Below are positions 18,657 to 29,227 of a stretch of 64,000 nucleotides of DNA, one piece after another. Position 1 is the stretch's first letter. Each line of letters begins with the position of its first letter. Source of the stretch: Escherichia phage 348Ecol098PP; sequence record OR062947.1; one strand, written 5' to 3'. The notes beneath the pieces are model-generated. The model was not told the origin of the DNA, did not search any database, and saw nothing but the letters and a program-made list of their open reading frames with translations. A program made the translations under genes and the position numbers.

Positions 18657-21368
18657 ATGAAAGAATTTTACTTAACGGTTGAACAGATTGGTGATTCAAT
18701 TTTTGAACGTTACATCGATTCTAACGGCCGTGAACGTACTCGTGAAGTAGAATATAAACCATCACTGTTTGCTCATTGTCCAGAAAGTCAGGCTACGAAA
18801 TATTTCGATATCTACGGTAAGCCGTGTACTCGTAAGTTGTTCGCTAATATGCGTGATGCCTCCCAATGGATTAAACGCATGGAAGATATCGGTCTTGAAG
18901 CACTTGGCATGGACGATTTCAAATTGGCGTATTTGTCTGACACTTATAACTATGAAATCAAATACGACCATACAAAAATTCGTGTGGCTAACTTCGACAT
19001 CGAAGTAACATCTCCCGATGGGTTCCCTGAGCCATCACAAGCAAAACATCCGATTGATGCTATCACCCATTATGACTCAATTGACGACAGGTTCTACGTA
19101 TTTGATCTATTGAATTCTCCATATGGTAATGTAGAAGAATGGTCTATTGAAATCGCTGCTAAGCTTCAAGAACAAGGCGGTGATGAAGTTCCATCCGAAA
19201 TTATCGATAAAATCATTTATATGCCGTTCGATAACGAAAAAGAATTGTTGATGGAATATCTCAACTTCTGGCAACAGAAAACTCCTGTCATTTTGACTGG
19301 ATGGAACGTTGAGTCATTTGATATTCCATATGTGTATAACCGAATCAAGAATATTTTTGGCGAATCTACTGCGAAACGTTTATCACCACATCGTAAAACT
19401 CGTGTTAAAGTTATCGAAAACATGTATGGTTCTCGTGAAATCATTACATTGTTCGGTATCTCTGTTCTTGATTACATTGACCTTTACAAAAAATTCTCTT
19501 TTACCAATCAACCATCGTATTCTCTGGATTACATTTCAGAATTTGAATTGAACGTTGGTAAACTGAAATATGACGGCCCTATTTCTAAGCTTCGTGAAAG
19601 CAATCACCAACGATATATTTCTTATAACATTATCGACGTGTATCGTGTATTGCAAATTGATGCTAAGCGTCAGTTCATCAACTTGAGTTTGGACATGGGT
19701 TATTATGCTAAAATTCAGATTCAATCTGTGTTTAGCCCAATTAAAACATGGGATGCTATTATTTTTAATAGCCTTAAAGAGCAGAACAAGGTGATTCCAC
19801 AAGGTCGTTCTCACCCGGTTCAACCTTATCCTGGCGCTTTTGTTAAGGAACCTATTCCAAATCGATACAAATATGTAATGAGTTTCGACCTTACATCTCT
19901 GTATCCAAGTATTATTCGCCAAGTGAATATTAGCCCGGAAACAATAGCAGGAACGTTTAAAGTAGCTCCATTGCATGATTATATTAACGCAATCGCTGAA
20001 CGTCCTTCAGATGTGTACAGTTGTTCTCCTAACGGCATGATGTATTATAAAGACCGTGATGGTGTAGTTCCAACTGAAATCACTAAAGTCTTTAATCAAC
20101 GTAAAGAACATAAAGGTTATATGCTTGCGGCTCAACGTAATGGCGAAATAATTAAAGAGGCATTGCATAATCCTAATCTTTCTGTTGATGAACCATTAGA
20201 TGTTGATTATCGTTTCGACTTCAGTGATGAGATTAAAGAAAAGATTAAAAAGTTGTCTGCTAAATCTCTTAATGAAATGTTGTTTAGAGCTCAACGTACT
20301 GAAGTTGCAGGTATGACTGCCCAAATTAACCGTAAATTGCTTATCAACTCACTTTATGGTGCACTTGGAAACGTTTGGTTCCGTTATTATGATTTGCGTA
20401 ATGCTACTGCAATCACAACATTTGGTCAAATGGCTTTACAGTGGATTGAACGTAAAGTTAATGAATATCTGAATGAAGTTTGTGGTACAGAAGGTGAAGC
20501 TTTCGTTCTTTATGGTGATACAGACTCTATTTACGTATCTGCTGATAAAATTATCGATAAGGTTGGTGAATCTAAATTCCGTGATACCAACCATTGGGTA
20601 GACTTCTTAGATAAGTTTGCACGTGAACGTATGGAACCAGCTATTGATAGAGGTTTCCGTGAAATGTGTGAATACATGAACAATAAACAACACTTAATGT
20701 TCATGGACCGAGAAGCTATCGCTGGTCCTCCACTTGGTTCTAAAGGTATTGGTGGATTCTGGACTGGTAAGAAACGTTATGCATTAAACGTGTGGGATAT
20801 GGAAGGTACTCGTTACGCTGAGCCTAAACTCAAAATCATGGGTCTAGAGACTCAGAAATCTTCGACTCCTAAAGCAGTACAGAAAGCTCTTAAAGAATGT
20901 ATTCGTCGTATGCTTCAAGAAGGTGAAGAATCATTACAAGAATATTTTAAAGAGTTTGAAAAAGAATTCCGTCAATTGAATTATATTAGCATCGCGTCTG
21001 TATCTTCTGCGAATAACATTGCTAAATATGATGTTGGTGGATTCCCTGGCCCCAAATGCCCATTCCATATTCGTGGAATTCTGACGTATAACCGGGCTAT
21101 CAAAGGTAATATCGATGCACCGCAAGTTGTAGAAGGTGAAAAAGTATATGTTCTGCCTTTACGTGAAGGAAACCCATTCGGTGATAAATGTATCGCATGG
21201 CCTTCTGGTACTGAAATCACAGATTTAATTAAAGACGACGTACTTCATTGGATGGACTACACTGTTCTCCTTGAGAAGACATTTATTAAACCACTTGAAG
21301 GATTCACATCAGCAGCGAAACTCGATTACGAGAAGAAAGCATCTCTGTTCGATATGTTCGATTTTTGA
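18657..21368 (+). CDS. 43: DNA polymerase gp43 (family B), RB69-type 903 aa
   Basis: MKEFYLTVEQIGDSIFERYIDSNGRERTREVEYKPSLFAHCPESQ... exo and pol motifs (FDIEV, YGDTDS). Confidence 0.97.
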   Translation: MKEFYLTVEQIGDSIFERYIDSNGRERTREVEYKPSLFAHCPESQATKYFDIYGKPCTRKLFANMRDASQWIKRMEDIGLEALGMDDFKLAYLSDTYNYEIKYDHTKIRVANFDIEVTSPDGFPEPSQAKHPIDAITHYDSIDDRFYVFDLLNSPYGNVEEWSIEIAAKLQEQGGDEVPSEIIDKIIYMPFDNEKELLMEYLNFWQQKTPVILTGWNVESFDIPYVYNRIKNIFGESTAKRLSPHRKTRVKVIENMYGSREIITLFGISVLDYIDLYKKFSFTNQPSYSLDYISEFELNVGKLKYDGPISKLRESNHQRYISYNIIDVYRVLQIDAKRQFINLSLDMGYYAKIQIQSVFSPIKTWDAIIFNSLKEQNKVIPQGRSHPVQPYPGAFVKEPIPNRYKYVMSFDLTSLYPSIIRQVNISPETIAGTFKVAPLHDYINAIAERPSDVYSCSPNGMMYYKDRDGVVPTEITKVFNQRKEHKGYMLAAQRNGEIIKEALHNPNLSVDEPLDVDYRFDFSDEIKEKIKKLSAKSLNEMLFRAQRTEVAGMTAQINRKLLINSLYGALGNVWFRYYDLRNATAITTFGQMALQWIERKVNEYLNEVCGTEGEAFVLYGDTDSIYVSADKIIDKVGESKFRDTNHWVDFLDKFARERMEPAIDRGFREMCEYMNNKQHLMFMDREAIAGPPLGSKGIGGFWTGKKRYALNVWDMEGTRYAEPKLKIMGLETQKSSTPKAVQKALKECIRRMLQEGEESLQEYFKEFEKEFRQLNYISIASVSSANNIAKYDVGGFPGPKCPFHIRGILTYNRAIKGNIDAPQVVEGEKVYVLPLREGNPFGDKCIAWPSGTEITDLIKDDVLHWMDYTVLLEKTFIKPLEGFTSAAKLDYEKKASLFDMFDF

Positions 21369-21408
21369 TATAATGACATGGACGGTAAACTAATTAAACG
21401 AGAGAAAT

Positions 21409-22044
21409 ATGAAAACTACTCCTATTACTATCGCTATTGACGCAATCATAAAACAATCTTCTTCTTTGGCCGCTATGGCCAAAGTAATTAGTCAAAACCC
21501 TGCTCGTTATAATGCTATTCTAGAAACTCTTCGACGTCCGGGACTTAGTAATTATGAAAGTCGTGTAATTATTACAGGTGTTGGTAAGAATGCTAATATT
21601 GCAACTAAAGCTTCTGAGACATTTGCTTCACTCGGTATCCCGAGTATGTACTTGAACACTGGGCATTATTCTCACGGCGATGCAGGATTCATTGCGCCTA
21701 ATGATGTGTTGATTCATATTAGTCGTTCTGGTAAAACTGAAGAAATGATAGGCGTGGCTAAGCATCTTAAAATGATTCGACCGAACGTCAAACAGATTCT
21801 GTTGCATTGTAACCCAGACATTCCACAAGAAAATGAAGCCCTTTTTGATTACTCTTTCTGTACAGGCATCGCAGTAGAGGTTGATGAGAATTCTCTGGCT
21901 CCGACTATGTCCACTACATTGTTGTTAGCGCTTATCGATACGTTTGCTATCAACCTTTCGTCTGAACGTGGATTTACCTCTAATGATTTCCTTAAGTTCC
22001 ATCCAGGCGGTGCACTAGGTGCCATGTTACGAGGCGAGCAATGA
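21409..22044 (+). CDS. SIS-domain sugar-phosphate isomerase, KdsD/KpsF/GutQ-type arabinose-5-phosphate isomerase-like (no CBS domains)
   Basis: GVGKNANIATKASETFASLGIPSMYLNTGHYSHGD, ISRSGKTEE, LAPTMSTTLLLAL, RGFTSNDFLKFHPGGALG match the API SIS-domain pattern from memory. Confidence 0.75.
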   Translation: MKTTPITIAIDAIIKQSSSLAAMAKVISQNPARYNAILETLRRPGLSNYESRVIITGVGKNANIATKASETFASLGIPSMYLNTGHYSHGDAGFIAPNDVLIHISRSGKTEEMIGVAKHLKMIRPNVKQILLHCNPDIPQENEALFDYSFCTGIAVEVDENSLAPTMSTTLLLALIDTFAINLSSERGFTSNDFLKFHPGGALGAMLRGEQ

Positions 22045-22184
22045 AAGCAATAACAATAGGACTTTTACTATTGATGCTTGTCATGACTATCTACTGGAGC
22101 TTAACGGCTCCAGTAATGATTCCAACACTTGTAATTGGATGGATTATGATTGGACTACAAGCAAAGTATGAATGCTTTAACTAG
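22041..22184 (+). CDS. small hydrophobic protein (47 aa, single/double TM)
   Basis: manual translation; ATGA overlap with isomerase stop. Confidence 0.4.
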   Translation: MKAITIGLLLLMLVMTIYWSLTAPVMIPTLVIGWIMIGLQAKYECFN

Positions 22185-22225
22185 AATAGTGTACAATACT
22201 CCTACTTACCAATGAGGACCACAAC

Positions 22226-23911
22226 ATGAAAAAAGCTGTTATTCTTGGTGCTGGACTAGCAACTCGTTTGTATCCAATAACGCATCATATTCCTAAGGTG
22301 CTTGTTAACTATAAACAAGACACTATTCTGAGCAATTTGTATACAATTTATTCTGACCTTGGCGCAGATGAAATTATTGTAGTAGTTCATTCAAAATTTG
22401 CTGGAACTGTTCGAGCTTATTGTGAGCAAGAAGGGTTCAATGTGACTATTCGTACAGTTGATGAAGCGTATGGTTCTGCTTATGCTCTTGCTAAATTGCA
22501 CAAAGATTTAGACGGCCATAATGTAATTGTTAACTGGTGTGATATTATTCCTGATTTTGGTTCATGGTCTTGGAATGTTAACGCAATCTATGTTAAGGGT
22601 GACGAATGTCGATATAATTTCGACGGTGAAAATATCACTAACGTAGGTTCAACAGGTGGTAATGTTGTAGGAATTTACCAGTTCAAAGACTGGGAATTCT
22701 ATATGGGTTCTACCGATGAGGAAATTCATGAATACTGCAAAGGACGTGATTTCGTAGAATTCCTTTACGGCAGTGCATTCAATAAATCAGAGCTTATGAA
22801 TCTAATTGATTTAGGTGATATGCCTAAACTTGAAAAGGCTCATGAAGTTCGTGAACTTAATCGTAGTTTTAATGCAGTTGAAATTGGTGAAGAAACTGTA
22901 ACTAAATTCGCATTAACCGAACAAGGCCGAGCTCTTCAGAAAGATGAGATTTCATGGTATCTTAAAGTGAAATCAGATTCAGTTCCTCAGTTAGTTTCTG
23001 TTAATGAAAATAACTTTGAAATGGAACGCATTAAAGGTAAGCCGGCATTTGAATATATTAAATCCAAATCGAGTCTCGCTCGTCCACAAATTGTTGATGC
23101 AATTTTAGATGCACTGAAATTCAGCACAGACACTTATTTTGTAAGTCCTGAAACTGTTCGTCGTGATTTCACTAAAGAATTCTATACGAAAGTTATTGAT
23201 CGTTGTGAAAGTATTCAACCATTGATTGATTCATTTGGTAAAATAACACATGTGAACTACACTAAGATTGGGCGTCTGAAGCCAATGTTGAAACAAGCTT
23301 TAGAACACCTTATTCGTTATCATAACCGTTCTCAGGGACAGTACTCTGTTATTCATGGTGACCCGAACTTCAGTAATACTATGATTACTGATAATGGCGA
23401 AGTCAAGTTTATCGACCCTCGTGGATATTTTGGTGAAACCAAGATTTACGGGCCAAAATTGTATGATGAAGCTAAAGTGCTTTACGCTGTTTCAGGATAT
23501 GATGAATTCAACGCTAATCCGACCTGGGGGCAGTTTACTATTGATGAAACAACTTGTAATGTGACTATTAACATCAATCCATTAGTTTACAAATATGGAA
23601 AGATGAGTTCGTTTAACGAGTATCATCATTTGGCGGTGGCAATTATCTGGATTGCATTAGGTGGTTATTTCAAGAATAATCCACTTAAAGCGGTAGCCGC
23701 ATATTATAAAGGTATGGAACTTCTGACTAAGCAATTACGTAACATGGGCCGTGTACTTCAGGACGGCACCATTAGTTATGACGTAGCAGAACCTGTAACG
23801 GCTACTCTGATTACAAAAAATCCTGGTAAATGGGTACTAACTGATAAAGAAACTGGTGTTTCCTATCGTCCAATCGGTGGCGATATCACTCATCAATGGG
23901 AACGAATCTAA
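22226..23911 (+). CDS. bifunctional sugar-1-phosphate nucleotidyltransferase / sugar anomeric kinase (APH/choline-kinase fold) fusion
   Basis: N-terminal AVILGAGLATRLYPIT..PK nucleotidyltransferase signature; C-terminal IHGDPNFSN and FIDPRG kinase motifs. Confidence 0.75.
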   Translation: MKKAVILGAGLATRLYPITHHIPKVLVNYKQDTILSNLYTIYSDLGADEIIVVVHSKFAGTVRAYCEQEGFNVTIRTVDEAYGSAYALAKLHKDLDGHNVIVNWCDIIPDFGSWSWNVNAIYVKGDECRYNFDGENITNVGSTGGNVVGIYQFKDWEFYMGSTDEEIHEYCKGRDFVEFLYGSAFNKSELMNLIDLGDMPKLEKAHEVRELNRSFNAVEIGEETVTKFALTEQGRALQKDEISWYLKVKSDSVPQLVSVNENNFEMERIKGKPAFEYIKSKSSLARPQIVDAILDALKFSTDTYFVSPETVRRDFTKEFYTKVIDRCESIQPLIDSFGKITHVNYTKIGRLKPMLKQALEHLIRYHNRSQGQYSVIHGDPNFSNTMITDNGEVKFIDPRGYFGETKIYGPKLYDEAKVLYAVSGYDEFNANPTWGQFTIDETTCNVTININPLVYKYGKMSSFNEYHHLAVAIIWIALGGYFKNNPLKAVAAYYKGMELLTKQLRNMGRVLQDGTISYDVAEPVTATLITKNPGKWVLTDKETGVSYRPIGGDITHQWERI

Positions 23912-24297
23912 TGCACCGTGTAGAAAACATGCTTAATCTTTGTTTTGATGTCGATGATTGTATAACAGAGTGGAATAACAATCGTGATTACGTGAACTTC
24001 AAACCAGACGTCGAAATGGTGTCTGCCATTAATGCCCTATATGATGCAGGGCATACCATAACGCTTTACACTGCTCGCGGTATGAAGTCAGTAGGTCCTG
24101 GTCGTATAGCAATTGACATTCTCCCAAGTCTGATTCAGAACTTGGCAAACATTGGCTTGAAGTACCATAATTTGCTAACACATAAACCAGTATATGATTG
24201 GATTATCGACGACAAAGCTATGCGTCCTGACGAATTCAAAGCTCTTATGAATAAAGGCGAATTCGAAACATTTAAATCATATAAACCGAATCTATAA
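23911..24297 (+). CDS. HAD-superfamily phosphatase
   Basis: motif I FDVDDCIT near N-terminus; TAATG overlap with upstream stop; ORF-track frame. Confidence 0.65.
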   Translation: MHRVENMLNLCFDVDDCITEWNNNRDYVNFKPDVEMVSAINALYDAGHTITLYTARGMKSVGPGRIAIDILPSLIQNLANIGLKYHNLLTHKPVYDWIIDDKAMRPDEFKALMNKGEFETFKSYKPNL

Positions 24298-24351
24298 TAA
24301 TTTAAGTAAGACCTGCAAAAACCATCGCAACAATTAACGCGAGATGCAAAA

Positions 24352-25512
24352 ATGAATACCTTTAAAATCGGAACGAATTTTGATTTAGCTCTTCTTGATA
24401 AAATCGTAGAGCTCAATAAAACTTATCCTAATAGCTTGATAAACGAAGTATACGGCTCTACAAGAGAAATGGCTTTTGTAGCAGCCAGACCTGATTTTAG
24501 GCTTCCTGACGTTGACAAAAAGATGTTAGAAGATTACGTTAAACGTTGTAACGAATTAGGTATTTGCTTTAACTATACACTCAACACGATAAATCCTGGT
24601 TCAAAAAGAGAACTAGTTGAGTGGAAGAAGAAAGCTATTCAGGATTATGTTCAGTATCTTTGGTCAATAGGCGTATGGCGTATTACTATCGCTAACCCTG
24701 TTGTTATGGAAATTGTTCGTGAAGTCAATAAAGACATTGAGATTGAAGTTTCAACAATTCTACATGTCGATGCTGTAACTCAAATCAAATACTTGCATGA
24801 CCAATATAATATCAAAAAGGTCTGCTGTGGAATTCATAAGAACCGTTCAGTTTCTTTCCTGAAGCGTGCAGCAGAGTTTTGCAATAAGAACAATATAATA
24901 TTTGAAGTTCTCGTAAATGAATTCTGCTCTAATGCTGGTAAAGGGTATACAACACATTGTAGTTATCGTGACTCTTGCTATATTTTCCATAGCACCGATG
25001 TTACAGTAGATGATGCCAAATCCTTAAATGGATATCCTATGCAGCACTGTATTAAAGCTCGTGATACAGACCCATTTAACTGGTTGAGAACTCGTTTTGT
25101 TCGTCCTCAAGATTTGAAACTTTATAATGATATTGGTATCACTCAATTCAAAGTTTCAGGACGTACAGGTAGCACCGACTACATTTTGAAAGTTCTTGAA
25201 GCTTATGCTTCTGAAAAGTTTGAAGGTAATTTGTTGGAATTGTGGAAGCCTTTAGAGACTATTTTCACTCTTGAAAATGAGACCGAGTTTTCACATACGG
25301 TAAATATTGAAACCTCTTTGTTAGATGGCTTTTTAGAAAAAAGGTGGTTCAAACATCCAGATTTCGATTGTGCTAATGAAATCTGCGGGACGACGTGTAC
25401 ATATTGTGAAAGATATTATAAACGTCAGTTATCTAAAAATGGGTTAGCAGAAAACTCTATATCTATTATTGATATAACTAACTCTGATGACGCTTTGAGG
25501 TACCCGGAATGA
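24352..25512 (+). CDS. peptidase-U32-family (TIM barrel, Cys-rich) protein
   Basis: NEVYGSTREMAFVAARPDF, ICFNYTLNTINPG, EFCSNAGKGYTTHCSYRDSC resemble U32 proteins as recalled from memory. Confidence 0.5.
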   Translation: MNTFKIGTNFDLALLDKIVELNKTYPNSLINEVYGSTREMAFVAARPDFRLPDVDKKMLEDYVKRCNELGICFNYTLNTINPGSKRELVEWKKKAIQDYVQYLWSIGVWRITIANPVVMEIVREVNKDIEIEVSTILHVDAVTQIKYLHDQYNIKKVCCGIHKNRSVSFLKRAAEFCNKNNIIFEVLVNEFCSNAGKGYTTHCSYRDSCYIFHSTDVTVDDAKSLNGYPMQHCIKARDTDPFNWLRTRFVRPQDLKLYNDIGITQFKVSGRTGSTDYILKVLEAYASEKFEGNLLELWKPLETIFTLENETEFSHTVNIETSLLDGFLEKRWFKHPDFDCANEICGTTCTYCERYYKRQLSKNGLAENSISIIDITNSDDALRYPE

Positions 25513-25790
25513 TTTCTAGAAAAACTTTTAACCACCAACTTAATGAAGAGATTTTGACTATGAAAATTAACAGCAACGAACAAATTCTTAAAAAGGCCCT
25601 TATGGGCCTGTTTGAAACTAAAGCGGCTAAAGTGATTAAAGAAACCTGTTCAACTAGAATACTACGCTGATGCATTTCTTCATAGTGTTCTTGGAAGTAT
25701 CGATGCTGAAGCTTTACGTTATATCAACATCGCTAAGAAATTCAAATAAGCTTTATGAATTGAGTATATAATAACTGTATTGAGGTAAAC

Positions 25791-26507
25791 ATGGGAAAAC
25801 ATAACACAATGAAATATATTAAAGCCGCAGATTTTCAATCCGCATTTAAAGCTGTCAATCGTGAAATTTTAGAAAATCCACAGTTCGTTACTGACTCTCG
25901 TATTGGACGTTGTAATGAAATTGGGTCTATGACAGTAGTTGTTGATACCCCTTCATCATTCAAAATGACCGACCCACGTATTAATCGCATCTCTTATGAA
26001 TATGCTGAAGATTTCTGGAAATTTATGATTTCTGGTGGTACTGATGCAGAAGAAGCATTTAAGGCATATCCTAACGTTGCTAAATTTATTTCTAAACCTA
26101 AATCAGATGCTTTGCCTGCAAACTTCAACACTTTCTACGGTCCACGAATTGCGGCCCAGTTACCAGCTCTTCTCAAAGAACTTAAAGAGAAACCTAATTC
26201 ACGAAGAGTTGTGTTTCAAATTCTTGAAAGTTCAGATCAGGCTTTGCTTGATTCGGATGAAACACTTGAATATCCATGTACTGACTCAGTGACTTATTAT
26301 ATTCGTGATGGTAAGCTTTATACCCACTGTCATATGCGTTCTCAGAACTGTGCTGTTGTTATGCAGTTGGATTTTTATCTCCAAGGAAAATTACTTCATT
26401 ATATCGCTAACGAATGTGGTGTAGAAGTTGGTGATTATACTCATACCATGGTAAGTGCCCATGTGTTTGAACGTGATTTTGATTATGTTAAAGGATTCCT
26501 TGACTAA
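25791..26507 (+). CDS. 42: dCMP hydroxymethylase (thymidylate-synthase fold)
   Basis: PNSRRVVFQI and YPCTDSVTYYIRDGKLYTHCHMRSQN align with the SRR and catalytic Cys regions of T4 gp42. Confidence 0.8.
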   Translation: MGKHNTMKYIKAADFQSAFKAVNREILENPQFVTDSRIGRCNEIGSMTVVVDTPSSFKMTDPRINRISYEYAEDFWKFMISGGTDAEEAFKAYPNVAKFISKPKSDALPANFNTFYGPRIAAQLPALLKELKEKPNSRRVVFQILESSDQALLDSDETLEYPCTDSVTYYIRDGKLYTHCHMRSQNCAVVMQLDFYLQGKLLHYIANECGVEVGDYTHTMVSAHVFERDFDYVKGFLD

Positions 26508-27406
26508 TGGCTATTTTCCGCGTACCTATCTTGAGTATGCGGTCTTATGAAACTGGACAGTATGCTATCCTTAAGGATGGCAACTTCCAACTTCATTTGC
26601 ACCGTGCTAATCCGGGTGATGTGATTACATATCCACGTAATGCATCTGATATTAAAGAATGTGAACGTCTTTTCCCAGAATTTAAGTTTGTTCCATTATG
26701 GTATAAAGATAACGCATATAACACTCGTAAATATTTCTGGTCTGAAAATGAATTTGTGGTTGATTCATTAATTGATTATTATGATTGTGATTTTCTAATC
26801 ACAGATATCACTGGATATGACGGTACTTTTGACGTAGAATTCAATTTCAATATCACTGCAGACCCTAATAAACCACGTTTTTATATTGACGAATTCTTAA
26901 AAACCGATATGTTGTCGGTTAATCGTTCACTTCAAACTACTGTGTTGAATAAACGTCAAAAGGAAGTGCTGGTTAACGCTGGTGCCGATGGTAATAAGAT
27001 TATCGTAACCCAGAAAGTTATACGTCCTTCCATCATGCAGCGTCTTGTAGGTGATTTGGCTCCTATTCATCTAGATGGTATTTTTCATCCATTTCGAATT
27101 AGTGATCCGTGCTATCGTTTTGAACAAGTGGTTGAATGCGCGATTCAATTAGGTCAACCGCTTTATATAACCGATCCAAATAATAGCTTCGACAGAAATA
27201 AGTATCCTGAAGAAGCGTTGATTCGAATTTTTAAACCAACTAAAACTGAGTACTATCAAATTCTTAAAGGACGACCGAAGATTCAATATTTCGAAAATCC
27301 TGAAGAAGTATTTCATCCAGGTCTTGGTGAGTTCATCTACTTTAACGCTTTAATTTCTTCGCCGTATAATATACCTAAATATGAAGATGTCGTAATCGAG
27401 GAATAA
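26507..27406 (+). CDS. hypothetical protein (299 aa) in the syntenic slot of T4 beta-glucosyltransferase; function unknown
   Basis: ORF track; TAATG coupling to gene 42; no recognisable beta-gt similarity. Confidence 0.8.
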   Translation: MAIFRVPILSMRSYETGQYAILKDGNFQLHLHRANPGDVITYPRNASDIKECERLFPEFKFVPLWYKDNAYNTRKYFWSENEFVVDSLIDYYDCDFLITDITGYDGTFDVEFNFNITADPNKPRFYIDEFLKTDMLSVNRSLQTTVLNKRQKEVLVNAGADGNKIIVTQKVIRPSIMQRLVGDLAPIHLDGIFHPFRISDPCYRFEQVVECAIQLGQPLYITDPNNSFDRNKYPEEALIRIFKPTKTEYYQILKGRPKIQYFENPEEVFHPGLGEFIYFNALISSPYNIPKYEDVVIEE

Positions 27407-27407
27407 A

Positions 27408-27956
27408 ATGGCTAAAATTATTTTAGTAGATGGCCCAGATAATGCTGGTAAAACAACTTTCATTAATGACATAATGGAAATTAGTGAAAGATATGTAAAG
27501 ATTGATTTCCCTAAACGAACAGTTGATGGACGTTTCGATGTTAAGTCTCGAAATGAAGTTGGCTGTTTCGAAACGATGTTGAATTATTTAGACCCTACTA
27601 AGATTTATCTGTTAGACCGTGGATATATTAGTAACTGGGTTTATGGACGTATTCGACAAGACGCGGACTCGGTTCTTGACGTTTATGAACAGGATTATGT
27701 TCGTCTTTGCCAAAACCATGATGTGTTCACAATTATTTTAACACGTAACGAAATGACTGAAAGTTTTGAAGACGACCTTATTACTTTGTCTTCATTCGGT
27801 TTTAATACAGTCATTTCACATTTTGAAGAGTTTGCAATTCATAACAAAATCCAAACGTATCAATTACTTAATCATGATGGTGCTAACAAAGTTATAGGAT
27901 TTAATGCAAGCGAACGTAATGATTTGATTACAGAAATCATCAAATGGGCTCGTTAA
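27408..27956 (+). CDS. P-loop kinase (thymidylate/nucleoside-monophosphate kinase-like)
   Basis: Walker A ILVDGPDNAGKTTF; size 182 aa; GAGGAA RBS. Confidence 0.7.
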   Translation: MAKIILVDGPDNAGKTTFINDIMEISERYVKIDFPKRTVDGRFDVKSRNEVGCFETMLNYLDPTKIYLLDRGYISNWVYGRIRQDADSVLDVYEQDYVRLCQNHDVFTIILTRNEMTESFEDDLITLSSFGFNTVISHFEEFAIHNKIQTYQLLNHDGANKVIGFNASERNDLITEIIKWAR

Positions 27957-28054
27957 GAGCCATTTAAAGTTTTAAATGCTGTATAACCCTTAGTATATAA
28001 TCATCTTATCTTTTAAACATGAGTAAAATATAATGATGCCTATGGAAAAATACA

Positions 28055-29227
28055 ATGTCTGATTTAAAATCTCGTCTGATTAAAGCTTCTACTTCTAAAA
28101 TGACTGCAGACTTGACTAAGTCTAAGCTGTTTAATAATCGTGATGAAGTCCCTACTCGTATTCCGATGTTGAATATTGCACTAGGTGGTGCTCTGAATGC
28201 AGGATTGCAATCAGGCTTGACTATTTTTGCTGCACCTTCTAAACATTTTAAAACATTGTTTGGACTGACCATGGTTGCAGCATATATGAAGAAATATAAA
28301 GATGCAATTTGTTTGTTCTATGATTCAGAATTTGGTGCTTCAGAATCTTATTTTCGTTCAATGGGTGTTGATTTAGACCGTGTAGTTCATACTCCGATTC
28401 AATCTGTCGAACAACTTAAAGTTGATATGACTAATCAGCTTGACGCGATTGAACGTGGTGATAAAGTTATTATCTTTATCGATTCAATCGGTAATACTGC
28501 ATCTAAGAAAGAAACCGAAGATGCGTTGAACGAGAAAGTTGTAGGTGATATGTCTCGTGCTAAGGCACTTAAATCTCTGTTCCGCATTGTGACTCCTTAT
28601 CTGACTATTAAAGATATTCCATGTGTTGCAATCAACCATACAGCAATGGAAATCGGCGGACTATATCCTAAAGAGATTATGGGCGGCGGTACAGGTATTC
28701 TTTACTCTGCTAACACTGTATTCTTTATCTCTAAACGTCAGGTTAAAGAAGGTACAGAATTGACCGGTTATGACTTCACGTTGAAAGCAGAAAAATCTCG
28801 CACAGTTAAAGAGAAATCTACTTTCCCGATCACGGTTAATTTTGATGGCGGTATTGACCCATTCAGTGGCTTGTTAGAAATGGCAACTGAAATTGGTTTT
28901 GTAGTTAAGCCTAAAGCCGGGTGGTATGCTCGTGAATTCCTTGACGAAGAAACAGGCGAAATGATTCGTGAAGAAAAATCATGGCGTGCTAAAGCTACTG
29001 ATTGTGTAGAATTTTGGGGGCCGTTGTTTAAACATAAGCCTTTCCGAGATGCAATTGAAACTAAATATAAACTAGGTGCTATCTCTTCTATTAAAGAAGT
29101 TGATGACGCTGTTAACGACCTTATTAATTGCAAAGCAACAACTAAAGTTCCGGTTAAAACTTCTGATGCTCCGTCTGCAGCAGATATAGAAAACGACCTT
29201 GACGAAATGGAAGATTTCGATGAATAA
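28055..29227 (+). CDS. uvsX: recombinase UvsX (RecA-like)
   Basis: 390 aa; N-terminal MSDLKSRLIKASTSK...; RecA fold motifs. Confidence 0.95.
   Translation: MSDLKSRLIKASTSKMTADLTKSKLFNNRDEVPTRIPMLNIALGGALNAGLQSGLTIFAAPSKHFKTLFGLTMVAAYMKKYKDAICLFYDSEFGASESYFRSMGVDLDRVVHTPIQSVEQLKVDMTNQLDAIERGDKVIIFIDSIGNTASKKETEDALNEKVVGDMSRAKALKSLFRIVTPYLTIKDIPCVAINHTAMEIGGLYPKEIMGGGTGILYSANTVFFISKRQVKEGTELTGYDFTLKAEKSRTVKEKSTFPITVNFDGGIDPFSGLLEMATEIGFVVKPKAGWYAREFLDEETGEMIREEKSWRAKATDCVEFWGPLFKHKPFRDAIETKYKLGAISSIKEVDDAVNDLINCKATTKVPVKTSDAPSAADIENDLDEMEDFDE

Follow-up and report, generated by a model that had tools for sequence, protein, structure and literature searches.

A cap-less HAD phosphatase gene of Escherichia phage 348Ecol098PP with a product identical to AfhF of phage HY126

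The gene at positions 23911-24297 of the window (the 64,000-nucleotide stretch of OR062947.1, from Escherichia phage 348Ecol098PP, that was analyzed as a whole) is afhF, which is already known: an identical protein has been published with its crystal structure. The product, AfhF, is very probably a Mg2+-dependent HAD phosphatase that hydrolyzes the 5-phosphate of D-arabinofuranose-1,5-bisphosphate. A PDB sequence search matches 128/128 residues to 9iqw_A (released 2025-07-16), the title of which names D-arabinose 1,5-diphosphate phosphatase, and 128/128 residues are likewise identical to protein XAN60478.1 of phage HY126 (genome PP658200.1). For substrate, order of steps and Mg2+ dependence we rely on the 9iqw title and on the secondary summary given in PMC13326640. 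The gene and its upstream partners are arranged as follows.

21409-22044, + strand: SIS-domain D-arabinose-5-phosphate isomerase (Ru5P to Ara5P), KdsD/GutQ-like, without CBS domains
22226-23911, + strand: afhE-type bifunctional gene, 561 aa, with an N-terminal sugar-1-phosphate nucleotidyltransferase and a C-terminal APH/choline-kinase-like sugar kinase
23909-23913, + strand: TAATG junction, in which the afhE-type TAA (23909-23911) overlaps the afhF-type ATG (23911-23913)
23911-24297, + strand: afhF-type HAD phosphatase gene, 128 codons, its product assigned as AfhF, D-arabinofuranose-1,5-bisphosphate 5-phosphatase, by identity to 9iqw

AfhF of Escherichia phage HY126 (He et al. 2026, Nat Chem Biol) is the same protein, encoded in the same gene order and joined to afhE by the same TAATG. 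The two genes differ at three synonymous nucleotides, all in third codon positions and with no amino acid change, so purifying selection is visible. Across the module the DNA is 97.4% identical to that of HY126, and the neighboring proteins differ at 1-3 residues, so the window is not HY126 itself. The source phage is a Mosigvirus (RB69-like). RB69 gp51 is a homolog of AfhF (Lee et al. 2026, PMC13326640); together with gp81 of Acinetobacter phage DLP3, RB69 gp51 (NP_861741) is predicted in that paper, on computational grounds only, to be a HAD-like Araf-1,5-P2 5-phosphatase, and both occupy the same place in the module, in Mosigvirus/Straboviridae genomes, as the window gene. The Thanatos paper (PMC12838424) makes no mention of the HAD gene.

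Translation of 23911-24297 on the + strand yields 128 residues followed by TAA and opens with MHRVENMLNLCFDVDDCITEW. Three in-frame ATG codons could serve as the start (23896, 23911, and 23929), of which we favor 23911 for three reasons. Pectobacterium phage PM2 (L011) retains the MHRVENLL segment, and the sole ATG available to it is the counterpart of 23911; the overlap with the upstream gene is kept across genera; and both the GenBank relatives and the query-matching residues of the PDB chain begin at the Met encoded at 23911. The starts at 23896 and 23929 are judged less likely. The 7-residue N-terminal extension is missing from most orthologs outside Mosigvirus.

The stop codon of the 561-aa ORF and the phosphatase ATG share a single base, as the first-pass annotation had pointed out in proposing a coupled operon. 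Both the overlap and the proposed coupling hold up on wider comparison: the kinase stop and the phosphatase start overlap in 10 of 13 sequences, the window included, spanning several genera. TAATG itself recurs in six of the compared loci (L010, L013, L014, L018, L019, and HY126, L124), and the other forms are (A/G)TGA (L016, L017) and a 17-nt overlap (L012). The one-base overlap implies that synthesis of the kinase/pyrophosphorylase and of the phosphatase would be coupled. A scan of 21300-28100 gave no excess of promoter-like sites (22, where 26.4 were expected) and detected no terminator on the + strand between the genes of this interval.

The protein had been read as a HAD-superfamily phosphatase from the N-terminal sequence FDVDDCIT (residues 12-19, 23944-23967), and this reading is confirmed by four invariant motifs and by the fold match.

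23947-23961, + strand: motif I, D13-V-D15-D-C17, with D13 (23947-23949) and D15 (23953-23955) invariant in 18 aligned homologs
24070-24072, + strand: motif II, T54 (LYTARG), invariant in 18 homologs and aligned with 1xpj
24184-24186, + strand: motif III, K92 (THKP), invariant in 18 homologs and aligned with 1xpj
24208-24213, + strand: motif IV, D100-D101 (IIDDK), invariant in 18 homologs and aligned with 1xpj

By itself the D.D.[TC] motif is not beyond chance; 12 instances are found when the window is translated in all six frames. The HAD assignment is solid because it draws on homology, namely PHROG 1238, TIGR01689, 1xpj, 9iqw, and the invariance of all four motifs. In the alignment of 18 homologs, with identity down to 35%, residues D13, D15, T54, R56, K92, D100, and D101 do not vary. 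Position +4 of motif I is Cys in the window protein and Thr in most homologs, including most of the non-Mosigvirus orthologs.

Family assignment used PHROGs, NCBIfam, a PDB sequence search and a fold search. The 128-aa protein matches PHROG 1238 with E = 1e-42 and TIGR01689 with E = 3.8e-13, and a Pfam search gave no match even at E <= 0.1. The AF2 model (pLDDT 80.6) superimposes on 9iqw with a TM of 0.87 and on 1xpj with 0.72, and places motif I directly after the strand formed by residues 9-13; near motif IV it is only moderately confident (pLDDT 64-74 over residues 91-110). Beyond 9iqw the fold search returned only cap-less HAD phosphatases: next in rank came those of sugar phosphates, comprising 1xpj, GmhB (3l8h/4pnh), HisB-N, and KdsC, and T4 Pnkp was matched as well. 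The first-pass annotation had left the cap type to structure prediction, and the model returns a Rossmannoid alpha/beta HAD core of the cap-less C0 type. Since 128 residues leave no room for a cap domain, the protein is a minimal cap-less (C0) HAD phosphatase.

Homology is clear, in sequence and in structure, to APC26283 of Vibrio cholerae (1xpj), which aligns at all four motifs with 30% identity (E = 4.9e-10, TM 0.71-0.72). Like the EcbF/BcbF proteins of TIGR01689 ("capsule biosynthesis phosphatase"), 1xpj is homologous to the window protein, bacterial and functionally uncharacterized. The TIGR01689 score of 49.5 bits lies far below the cutoff of 162, which places the window protein outside the curated subfamily, homologous though it is. 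KdsC (YrbI), the Kdo-8-phosphate phosphatase, likewise applies a cap-less HAD fold to a terminal sugar phosphate; its similarity to the window protein is only remote (E about 0.06-0.2) and its substrate is different.

GmhB, a protein of about 180 residues, carries a Zn-binding Cys/His insert with a four-ligand Zn site. The window protein has 128 residues and only two Cys (C11 and C17), and thus no four-ligand Zn site of this kind. The two proteins share the cap-less HAD core, and the pathway logic of GmhB (D-glycero-D-manno-heptose-1,7-bisphosphate 7-phosphatase; 3l8h, 4pnh) is the same: isomerase, anomeric kinase acting on a sugar omega-phosphate, removal of the omega-phosphate from a 1,omega-bisphosphate, and nucleotidyl transfer. 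Their structural likeness is weak (E = 0.02, TM 0.48, 17% identity). At 14.7 bits the protein falls short of the TIGR01662 cutoff of 44.6, which puts it outside HAD-SF-IIIA, and GmhB family membership was rejected on this score, the Cys count and the TM of 0.48. These observations also bear on the GenBank and PHROG labels, by which the protein would be a "phosphoheptose isomerase" or an enzyme of a heptose or capsule pathway (GmhA/GmhB or EcbF/BcbF). Such a role would agree with the description of PHROG 1238, with many RefSeq annotations and with the E-value of the EcbF-BcbF match, but given both sub-cutoff scores, the missing Zn ligands and a neighborhood in which no heptose genes were found, we regard it as extremely unlikely. 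Neither Pfam nor NCBIfam detects an SIS/isomerase domain in the 128-aa protein, which carries HAD motifs instead, and the isomerase label is a mis-annotation.

The annotation "putative polynucleotide kinase" is attached to some relatives, and Foldseek returns weak matches to the phosphatase domain of T4 Pnkp (E about 0.08-0.25, TM about 0.47). Taken at face value, these would suggest that the enzyme dephosphorylates nucleotides or DNA ends instead of a sugar, as a 5'(3')-deoxyribonucleotidase or as a 3'-phosphatase like that of Pnkp. The Pnkp matches, however, are no better than those to GmhB, KdsC, and HisB-N and reflect only the common cap-less HAD core. The 128-aa protein has no kinase domain, its gene is strictly syntenic and translationally coupled with a sugar kinase/pyrophosphorylase, and a sugar-bisphosphate activity is assigned to the identical protein (9iqw). 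Activity on nucleotides or DNA ends is therefore very unlikely, and the kinase annotation was rejected on domain content and synteny. For this gene, "phosphoheptose isomerase", "capsule biosynthesis protein", "polynucleotide kinase", and "haloacid dehydrogenase" are all misleading labels, which the assignment as AfhF corrects.

To our knowledge, UDP-arabinofuranose is not made by E. coli, and AfhF represents one step towards it in RB69-like (Mosigvirus) and many other T4-like phages. In the proposed pathway the phage SIS isomerase would convert host ribulose-5-P to arabinose-5-P, and the C-terminal kinase domain of the 561-aa protein would phosphorylate C1 to give the 1,5-bisphosphate. AfhF would then take off the C5 phosphate, the N-terminal nucleotidyltransferase domain would combine Araf-1-P with UTP to form UDP-arabinofuranose, and phage glycosyltransferases would move the arabinose onto 5-hydroxycytosine in DNA. 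If AfhF follows the HAD paradigm, Asp13 would attack the phosphorus to form an aspartyl-phosphate and Asp15 would act as general acid/base, with Thr54 and Lys92 holding the phosphate and Asp100/Asp101 helping to bind Mg2+. By coating 5-hydroxycytosine with arabinose the phages block restriction enzymes, and CRISPR and type IV defenses are affected as well; the biology of arabinosylation has been published (9iqw 2025; He et al. 2026; Lee et al. 2026, PMC13326640; Mahler et al. 2025).

The order of these steps follows the biochemistry of He et al. 2026 as it is summarized in PMC13326640. According to that summary, AfhE of HY126 phosphorylates Araf-5-P to Araf-1,5-P2 by its kinase domain, AfhF removes the 5-phosphate in a Mg2+-dependent reaction to leave Araf-1-P, and the N-terminal domain of AfhE makes UDP-arabinofuranose for arabinosylating 5-hydroxycytosine in DNA. 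AfhE is described there as an A5P kinase and UDP-arabinose pyrophosphorylase. The first-pass annotation had foreseen a pathway that turns the arabinose-5-P made by the SIS enzyme into C1-activated arabinose, and this is what the module appears to encode. It had also set the phosphatase between isomerase and kinase, moving the phosphate from C5 to C1 by way of the free sugar. The net transfer stands; the route does not, going by the 9iqw title and the text of PMC13326640. The gene lies downstream of the kinase gene, and by the same text the enzyme acts after the kinase, on the bisphosphate, which replaces free arabinose as the intermediate.

A free-sugar route, in which the phosphatase would convert arabinose-5-P to free D-arabinose before an anomeric kinase phosphorylates C1, follows the logic of AmgK/MurU salvage. 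The upstream enzyme does resemble a MurU-type uridylyltransferase fused to an APH-fold sugar kinase, and AmgK and NahK, characterized kinases of similar kind, act on free sugars. Table 1 of PMC13326640 also assigns this route to RB69 gp51, which it says "dephosphorylates Araf5p to Ara", and to the kinase domain, contradicting the paper's own text, which has AfhE acting directly on Araf-5-P and AfhF on the bisphosphate. The 9iqw title likewise gives a 1,5-diphosphate as substrate, and GmhB, the nearest characterized structural analog, also acts on a 1,omega-bisphosphate. The free-sugar route was a reasonable guess that is superseded by the biochemistry as summarized in that text, and we consider it unlikely.

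The phosphatase gene forms part of a larger module. The 561-aa protein matches Pfam NTP_transferase over residues 3-99 (3.6e-9), with weak kinase-family matches over residues 308-409, as well as the NCBIfam AglF, MurU, and GlmU N-terminal domains and PHROG 4098 (E = 1.3e-294). Its C-terminal part is assigned as a putative Ara-5-P 1-kinase by analogy with AfhE of He et al., as reported in PMC13326640. The product of 21409-22044 matches Pfam SIS (1.1e-10) and PHROG 5670 (E = 7.9e-116), and its NCBIfam KpsF/KdsD matches (E = 2e-32 and 7e-31) score below cutoff. Four further genes follow the phosphatase.

24352-25512, + strand: Peptidase-U32-family protein, 386 aa (Pfam Peptidase_U32 6.3e-11; NCBIfam UbiU 4.8e-4)
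25791-26507, + strand: thymidylate-synthase homolog, a flavin-dependent 5-hydroxy-dCMP synthase providing the acceptor base (function from PMC13326640)
26507-27406, + strand: 299-aa protein (PHROG 3891) located where RB69 has gp46:47, its first DNA arabinosyltransferase
27408-27956, + strand: P-loop thymidylate-kinase-like nucleotide kinase, counterpart of RB69 p045 (PHROG 761, E = 1.6e-45)

The thymidylate-synthase homolog matches PDB 9iqc/9ir2 over residues 1-238 (E = 6e-163) and differs from its HY126 ortholog at one residue. Its stop overlaps the start of the 299-aa gene, again as TAATG. PMC13326640 lists RB69 p045-p055 in the same gene order as is found in the window. Where the HAD protein is at least 50% identical, the NTP-transferase/kinase gene lies directly upstream in 11/11 loci, the thymidylate-synthase homolog and the glycosyltransferase downstream in 11/11, and the SIS gene is found in 9/11; the 299-aa gene accompanies the HAD gene in all 11 close loci.

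Two neighbors of this finding may merit attention: the U32-family gene, and the bacterial homologs found in a Kdo context. The U32-family protein is found in 221 phage records, all at least 80% identical, and a PDB search at E <= 0.01 returned no sequence related to it; it is possibly an O2-independent cytosine hydroxylase.

More speculatively, AfhF could be one member of a broader and mostly uncharacterized clade of cap-less HAD proteins (about 105-130 aa) that remove terminal sugar phosphates. The clade may take in 1xpj, the PHROG 1238 members of cyanophage-like and other environmental viral contigs, and homologs from Chitinophagales. The latter may be KdsC analogs; under this tentative proposal they would be non-canonical Kdo-8-P phosphatases, and the phage isomerase and phosphatase would come as a pair from a Kdo-pathway operon. 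If so, the pair would have been retargeted to arabinose-1,5-bisphosphate after a kinase was added.

The distant Chitinophagales homologs adjoin KdsD-like and KdsA-like genes. The order is kept, with the HAD gene followed by the A5P-isomerase-like SIS gene and then by the KdsA-like gene.

The window represents a T4-like phage genome, and DNA polymerase, UvsX and a gp41-type helicase are encoded on the flanks of the HAD region. The 6.2-kb stretch around the HAD gene is 97.5-98.2% identical to its best 25 phage records, which come from Escherichia or Shigella phages throughout; the two records checked for taxonomy are assigned to Mosigvirus. The features needed here are as follows.

21409..22044, plus strand: SIS isomerase gene
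22226..23911, plus strand: afhE, the upstream 561-aa ORF, with its TAA stop at 23909-23911
23911..24297, plus strand: HAD gene (afhF), a 128-codon ORF ending in TAA
23944-23967, plus strand: FDVDDCIT motif, residues 12-19 of the HAD protein

The first-pass annotation gave the exact coordinates of the HAD gene, and correctly placed the FDVDDCIT motif near the N-terminus and the start codon over the upstream stop. At this TAATG junction, the HAD-gene ATG (23911-23913) has one base in common with the afhE TAA. The longest version of the ORF formally opens at ATG 23896 and a further ATG lies at 23929. Judging from sequence comparisons, the 23911 start is favored, because Pectobacterium phage PM2 retains the MHRVENLL N-terminus with that ATG as its sole option, because other genera also have the start codon overlapping the stop of the preceding kinase gene, and because GenBank relatives and the query-matching residues of PDB 9iqw begin at the same Met.

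A six-frame translation of the window contains D.D.[TC] 12 times, so the short motif alone is not beyond chance, and homology is what decides the HAD assignment. The protein matches PHROG 1238 (E = 1e-42) and PDB 1xpj (E = 4.9e-10), and is identical to 9iqw over all 128 residues; Pfam returns no match. It also matches NCBIfam TIGR01689 ("capsule biosynthesis phosphatase", EcbF/BcbF; E = 3.8e-13), to which it is homologous, yet it lies outside the family as curated (49.5 bits vs a cutoff of 162). Across 18 aligned homologues with identities down to 35%, all four HAD motifs are invariant: Asp13 and Asp15 (motif I), Thr54 (motif II), Lys92 (motif III), and Asp100/Asp101 (motif IV). The same is true of Arg56, His48, Lys84, His86, Tyr27, and Tyr95. 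From the general HAD mechanism, Asp13 would be the nucleophile and Asp15 the acid/base, with Thr54 and Lys92 predicted to bind phosphate and Asp100/101 to bind Mg2+. The AlphaFold2 model (pLDDT 80.6) superimposes on 9iqw with TM 0.87 and on 1xpj with TM 0.72, and past these two entries the fold search retrieves only cap-less HAD phosphatases (GmhB, HisB-N, KdsC, and the T4 Pnkp phosphatase domain). Because 128 residues leave no space for a cap domain, the cap type, for which structure prediction had been proposed as a check, is C0. The call of a HAD phosphatase is thus borne out by motifs, homology, and fold alike. We note that position +4 of motif I is Cys (Cys17, 23959..23961) in the Mosigvirus/PM2 lineage (DVDDC) and Thr (DIDNT/DIDDT) in nearly all homologues outside it; this lineage also carries a 7-residue N-terminal extension (MHRVENx).

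By sequence identity, the HAD protein is AfhF. The 9iqw entry, released on 2025-07-16, is titled in Foldseek output as the D-arabinose 1,5-diphosphate phosphatase of phage HY126 (PP658200.1), which encodes an identical HAD protein and has its genes arranged in the same way. The window and HY126 are distinct: the DNA is 97.4% identical over the 9.4-kb module, neighboring proteins differ at 1-3 residues, and the HAD genes show 3 nucleotide differences in all, each at a third codon position. The thymidylate synthase (TS) homologue at 25791..26507 likewise matches PDB 9iqc, 9ir2, and 9iqu, whose codes share the 9iq/9ir range. The finding is therefore already known, with the structure out in 2025 and the biochemistry published in 2026.

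That biochemistry (He et al. 2026, Nat Chem Biol, as relayed by Lee et al. 2026, PMC13326640) covers AfhE, the RB69 gp52:53 counterpart and the 561-aa protein of the window, described as both an Ara-5-P kinase and a UDP-arabinose pyrophosphorylase, and AfhF, the RB69 gp51 counterpart, described as a Mg2+-dependent phosphatase converting Araf-1,5-P2 to Araf-1-P. Starting with the SIS isomerase, the pathway would run Ru5P → Ara5P → Ara-1,5-P2 → Ara-1-P → UDP-Araf, from which arabinose would be moved onto 5-hydroxycytosine. These papers show the modified base to be 5-hydroxycytosine, not the hydroxymethylcytosine first reported for RB69, and the flavin-dependent TS homologue is its source. The net shift of the phosphate from C5 to C1 en route to activated arabinose, as first proposed, agrees with these reported activities. 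The proposed path via the free sugar, in which Ara-5-P is dephosphorylated to arabinose before C1 phosphorylation, does not. It is still printed in Table 1 of PMC13326640, where RB69 gp51 "dephosphorylates Araf5p to Ara" and the kinase domain phosphorylates free arabinose, but the body of that paper follows He et al. in taking the bisphosphate route, at odds with its own table, which seems to retain an earlier hypothesis. The free-sugar path is contradicted by the name under which the identical protein is deposited and by the biochemistry as relayed, in which the kinase acts first and the phosphatase works on the bisphosphate; it is very improbable. Nor does the phosphatase sit between isomerase and kinase in gene order; the HAD gene follows the kinase gene.

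The bisphosphate route mirrors the way GmhB works in making ADP/GDP-heptose, where the phosphatase also acts on a bisphosphate after the kinase. Membership in GmhB/HAD-IIIA was rejected (TIGR01662 score 14.7 vs a cutoff of 44.6; Foldseek TM 0.48). GmhB typically has a Zn-binding insert, which is impossible here since the HAD protein has two Cys only. Four widely used labels are either mis-annotations or uninformative: "phosphoheptose isomerase", "capsule biosynthesis protein", "polynucleotide kinase", and "haloacid dehydrogenase".

Of the 114 loci compared, viral and bacterial, 11 encode a HAD at least 50% identical. All 11 have an NTP-transferase/kinase gene immediately upstream and a TS homologue and glycosyltransferase downstream, and nine have the SIS gene. 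Where HAD identity is only 30-45%, the arabinosylation partners are missing from the loci, showing that the AfhF clade is nested in a broader family. The kinase/HAD junction is TAATG in the window, L010, L013, L014, L018, L019, and HY126 and (A/G)TGA in L016 and L017, and the genes overlap by 17 nt in L012; spacers (52-120 nt) occur only in L011 (PM2), L015, and L090. With overlap conserved in nine sequences besides the window, the suggestion of a coupled operon is well supported. A second TAATG (26505..26509, plus strand) joins the TS homologue (5-hydroxy-dCMP synthase) to a 299-aa putative arabinosyltransferase, so translational coupling recurs within the module. Two T4-like phage contigs, L014 and L015, carry a HAD gene (62-66% identical) together with afhE-like, TS-homologue, and glycosyltransferase genes, and in both the P-loop kinase gene comes right behind the HAD gene. 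Neither locus yielded a SIS isomerase within 8 kb, and these phages may take arabinose-5-P from host KdsD/GutQ.

Small HAD homologues are found in at least 586 tblastn-confirmed stretches. Those of environmental viral contigs (L020-L089) and Synechococcus phage S-SM2 (H125) are 35-45% identical and have no arabinosylation partners nearby; this makes PHROG 1238 a broad family, and its members beyond AfhF probably serve different sugar pathways. In 13 Chitinophagales loci (L093, L094, L097-L099, L101-L106, L115, and L117; for example, L094 7980..9704), a HAD gene (30-42% identical) is followed by an A5P-isomerase-like SIS gene (33-37% identical to the window isomerase) and then a 258-aa, KdsA-like DAHP_synth_1 protein. 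This order suggests that these HADs are non-canonical Kdo-8-P phosphatase analogues, and a Kdo-pathway origin of the phage isomerase and phosphatase pair is possible. L001-L004 have the HAD-SIS pair without the KdsA-like gene.

Two neighboring genes deserve comment.

24352..25512, plus strand: peptidase-U32-family gene, directly downstream of the HAD gene
22041..22184, plus strand: 47-aa strongly hydrophobic ORF (MKAITIGLLLLMLVMTIYWSLTAPVMIPTLVIGWIMIGLQAKYECFN), between the isomerase gene and afhE

The U32 gene is unusually conserved, with 221 phage records each at least 80% identical; the copy in Shewanella phage Thanatos-2 still shows 82% identity. Its top ten genera (each with at least 3 records) include no Acinetobacter phage, whereas the HAD gene is found in 57 Acinetobacter phage records. 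For 5 of the 11 loci with a HAD at least 50% identical, no U32 gene was detected within 8 kb on either side. The family includes RlhA (needed for ho5C2501 in rRNA), TrhP (which makes ho5U), and UbiU/V, and its hydroxylases are O2-independent and prephenate-dependent (PMC5727448, PMC6599085, PMC10990095). In PMC13326640 the RB69 orthologue is called a "sugar or heterocycle reductase" and nothing more, and a link to U32 hydroxylases is drawn neither there nor in the other literature consulted. Since the family has O2-independent hydroxylases, the gene could provide a candidate anaerobic route to 5-hydroxy-dCMP beside the O2/flavin-dependent TS homologue; if true, this would mean O2-independent 5-hydroxy-dCMP synthesis in phages of facultative anaerobes. 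The 47-aa ORF, which overlaps the isomerase-gene stop just upstream of afhE and carries a CDS annotation in HY126, mobillu, and 308Ecol101PP, may encode a small membrane protein.
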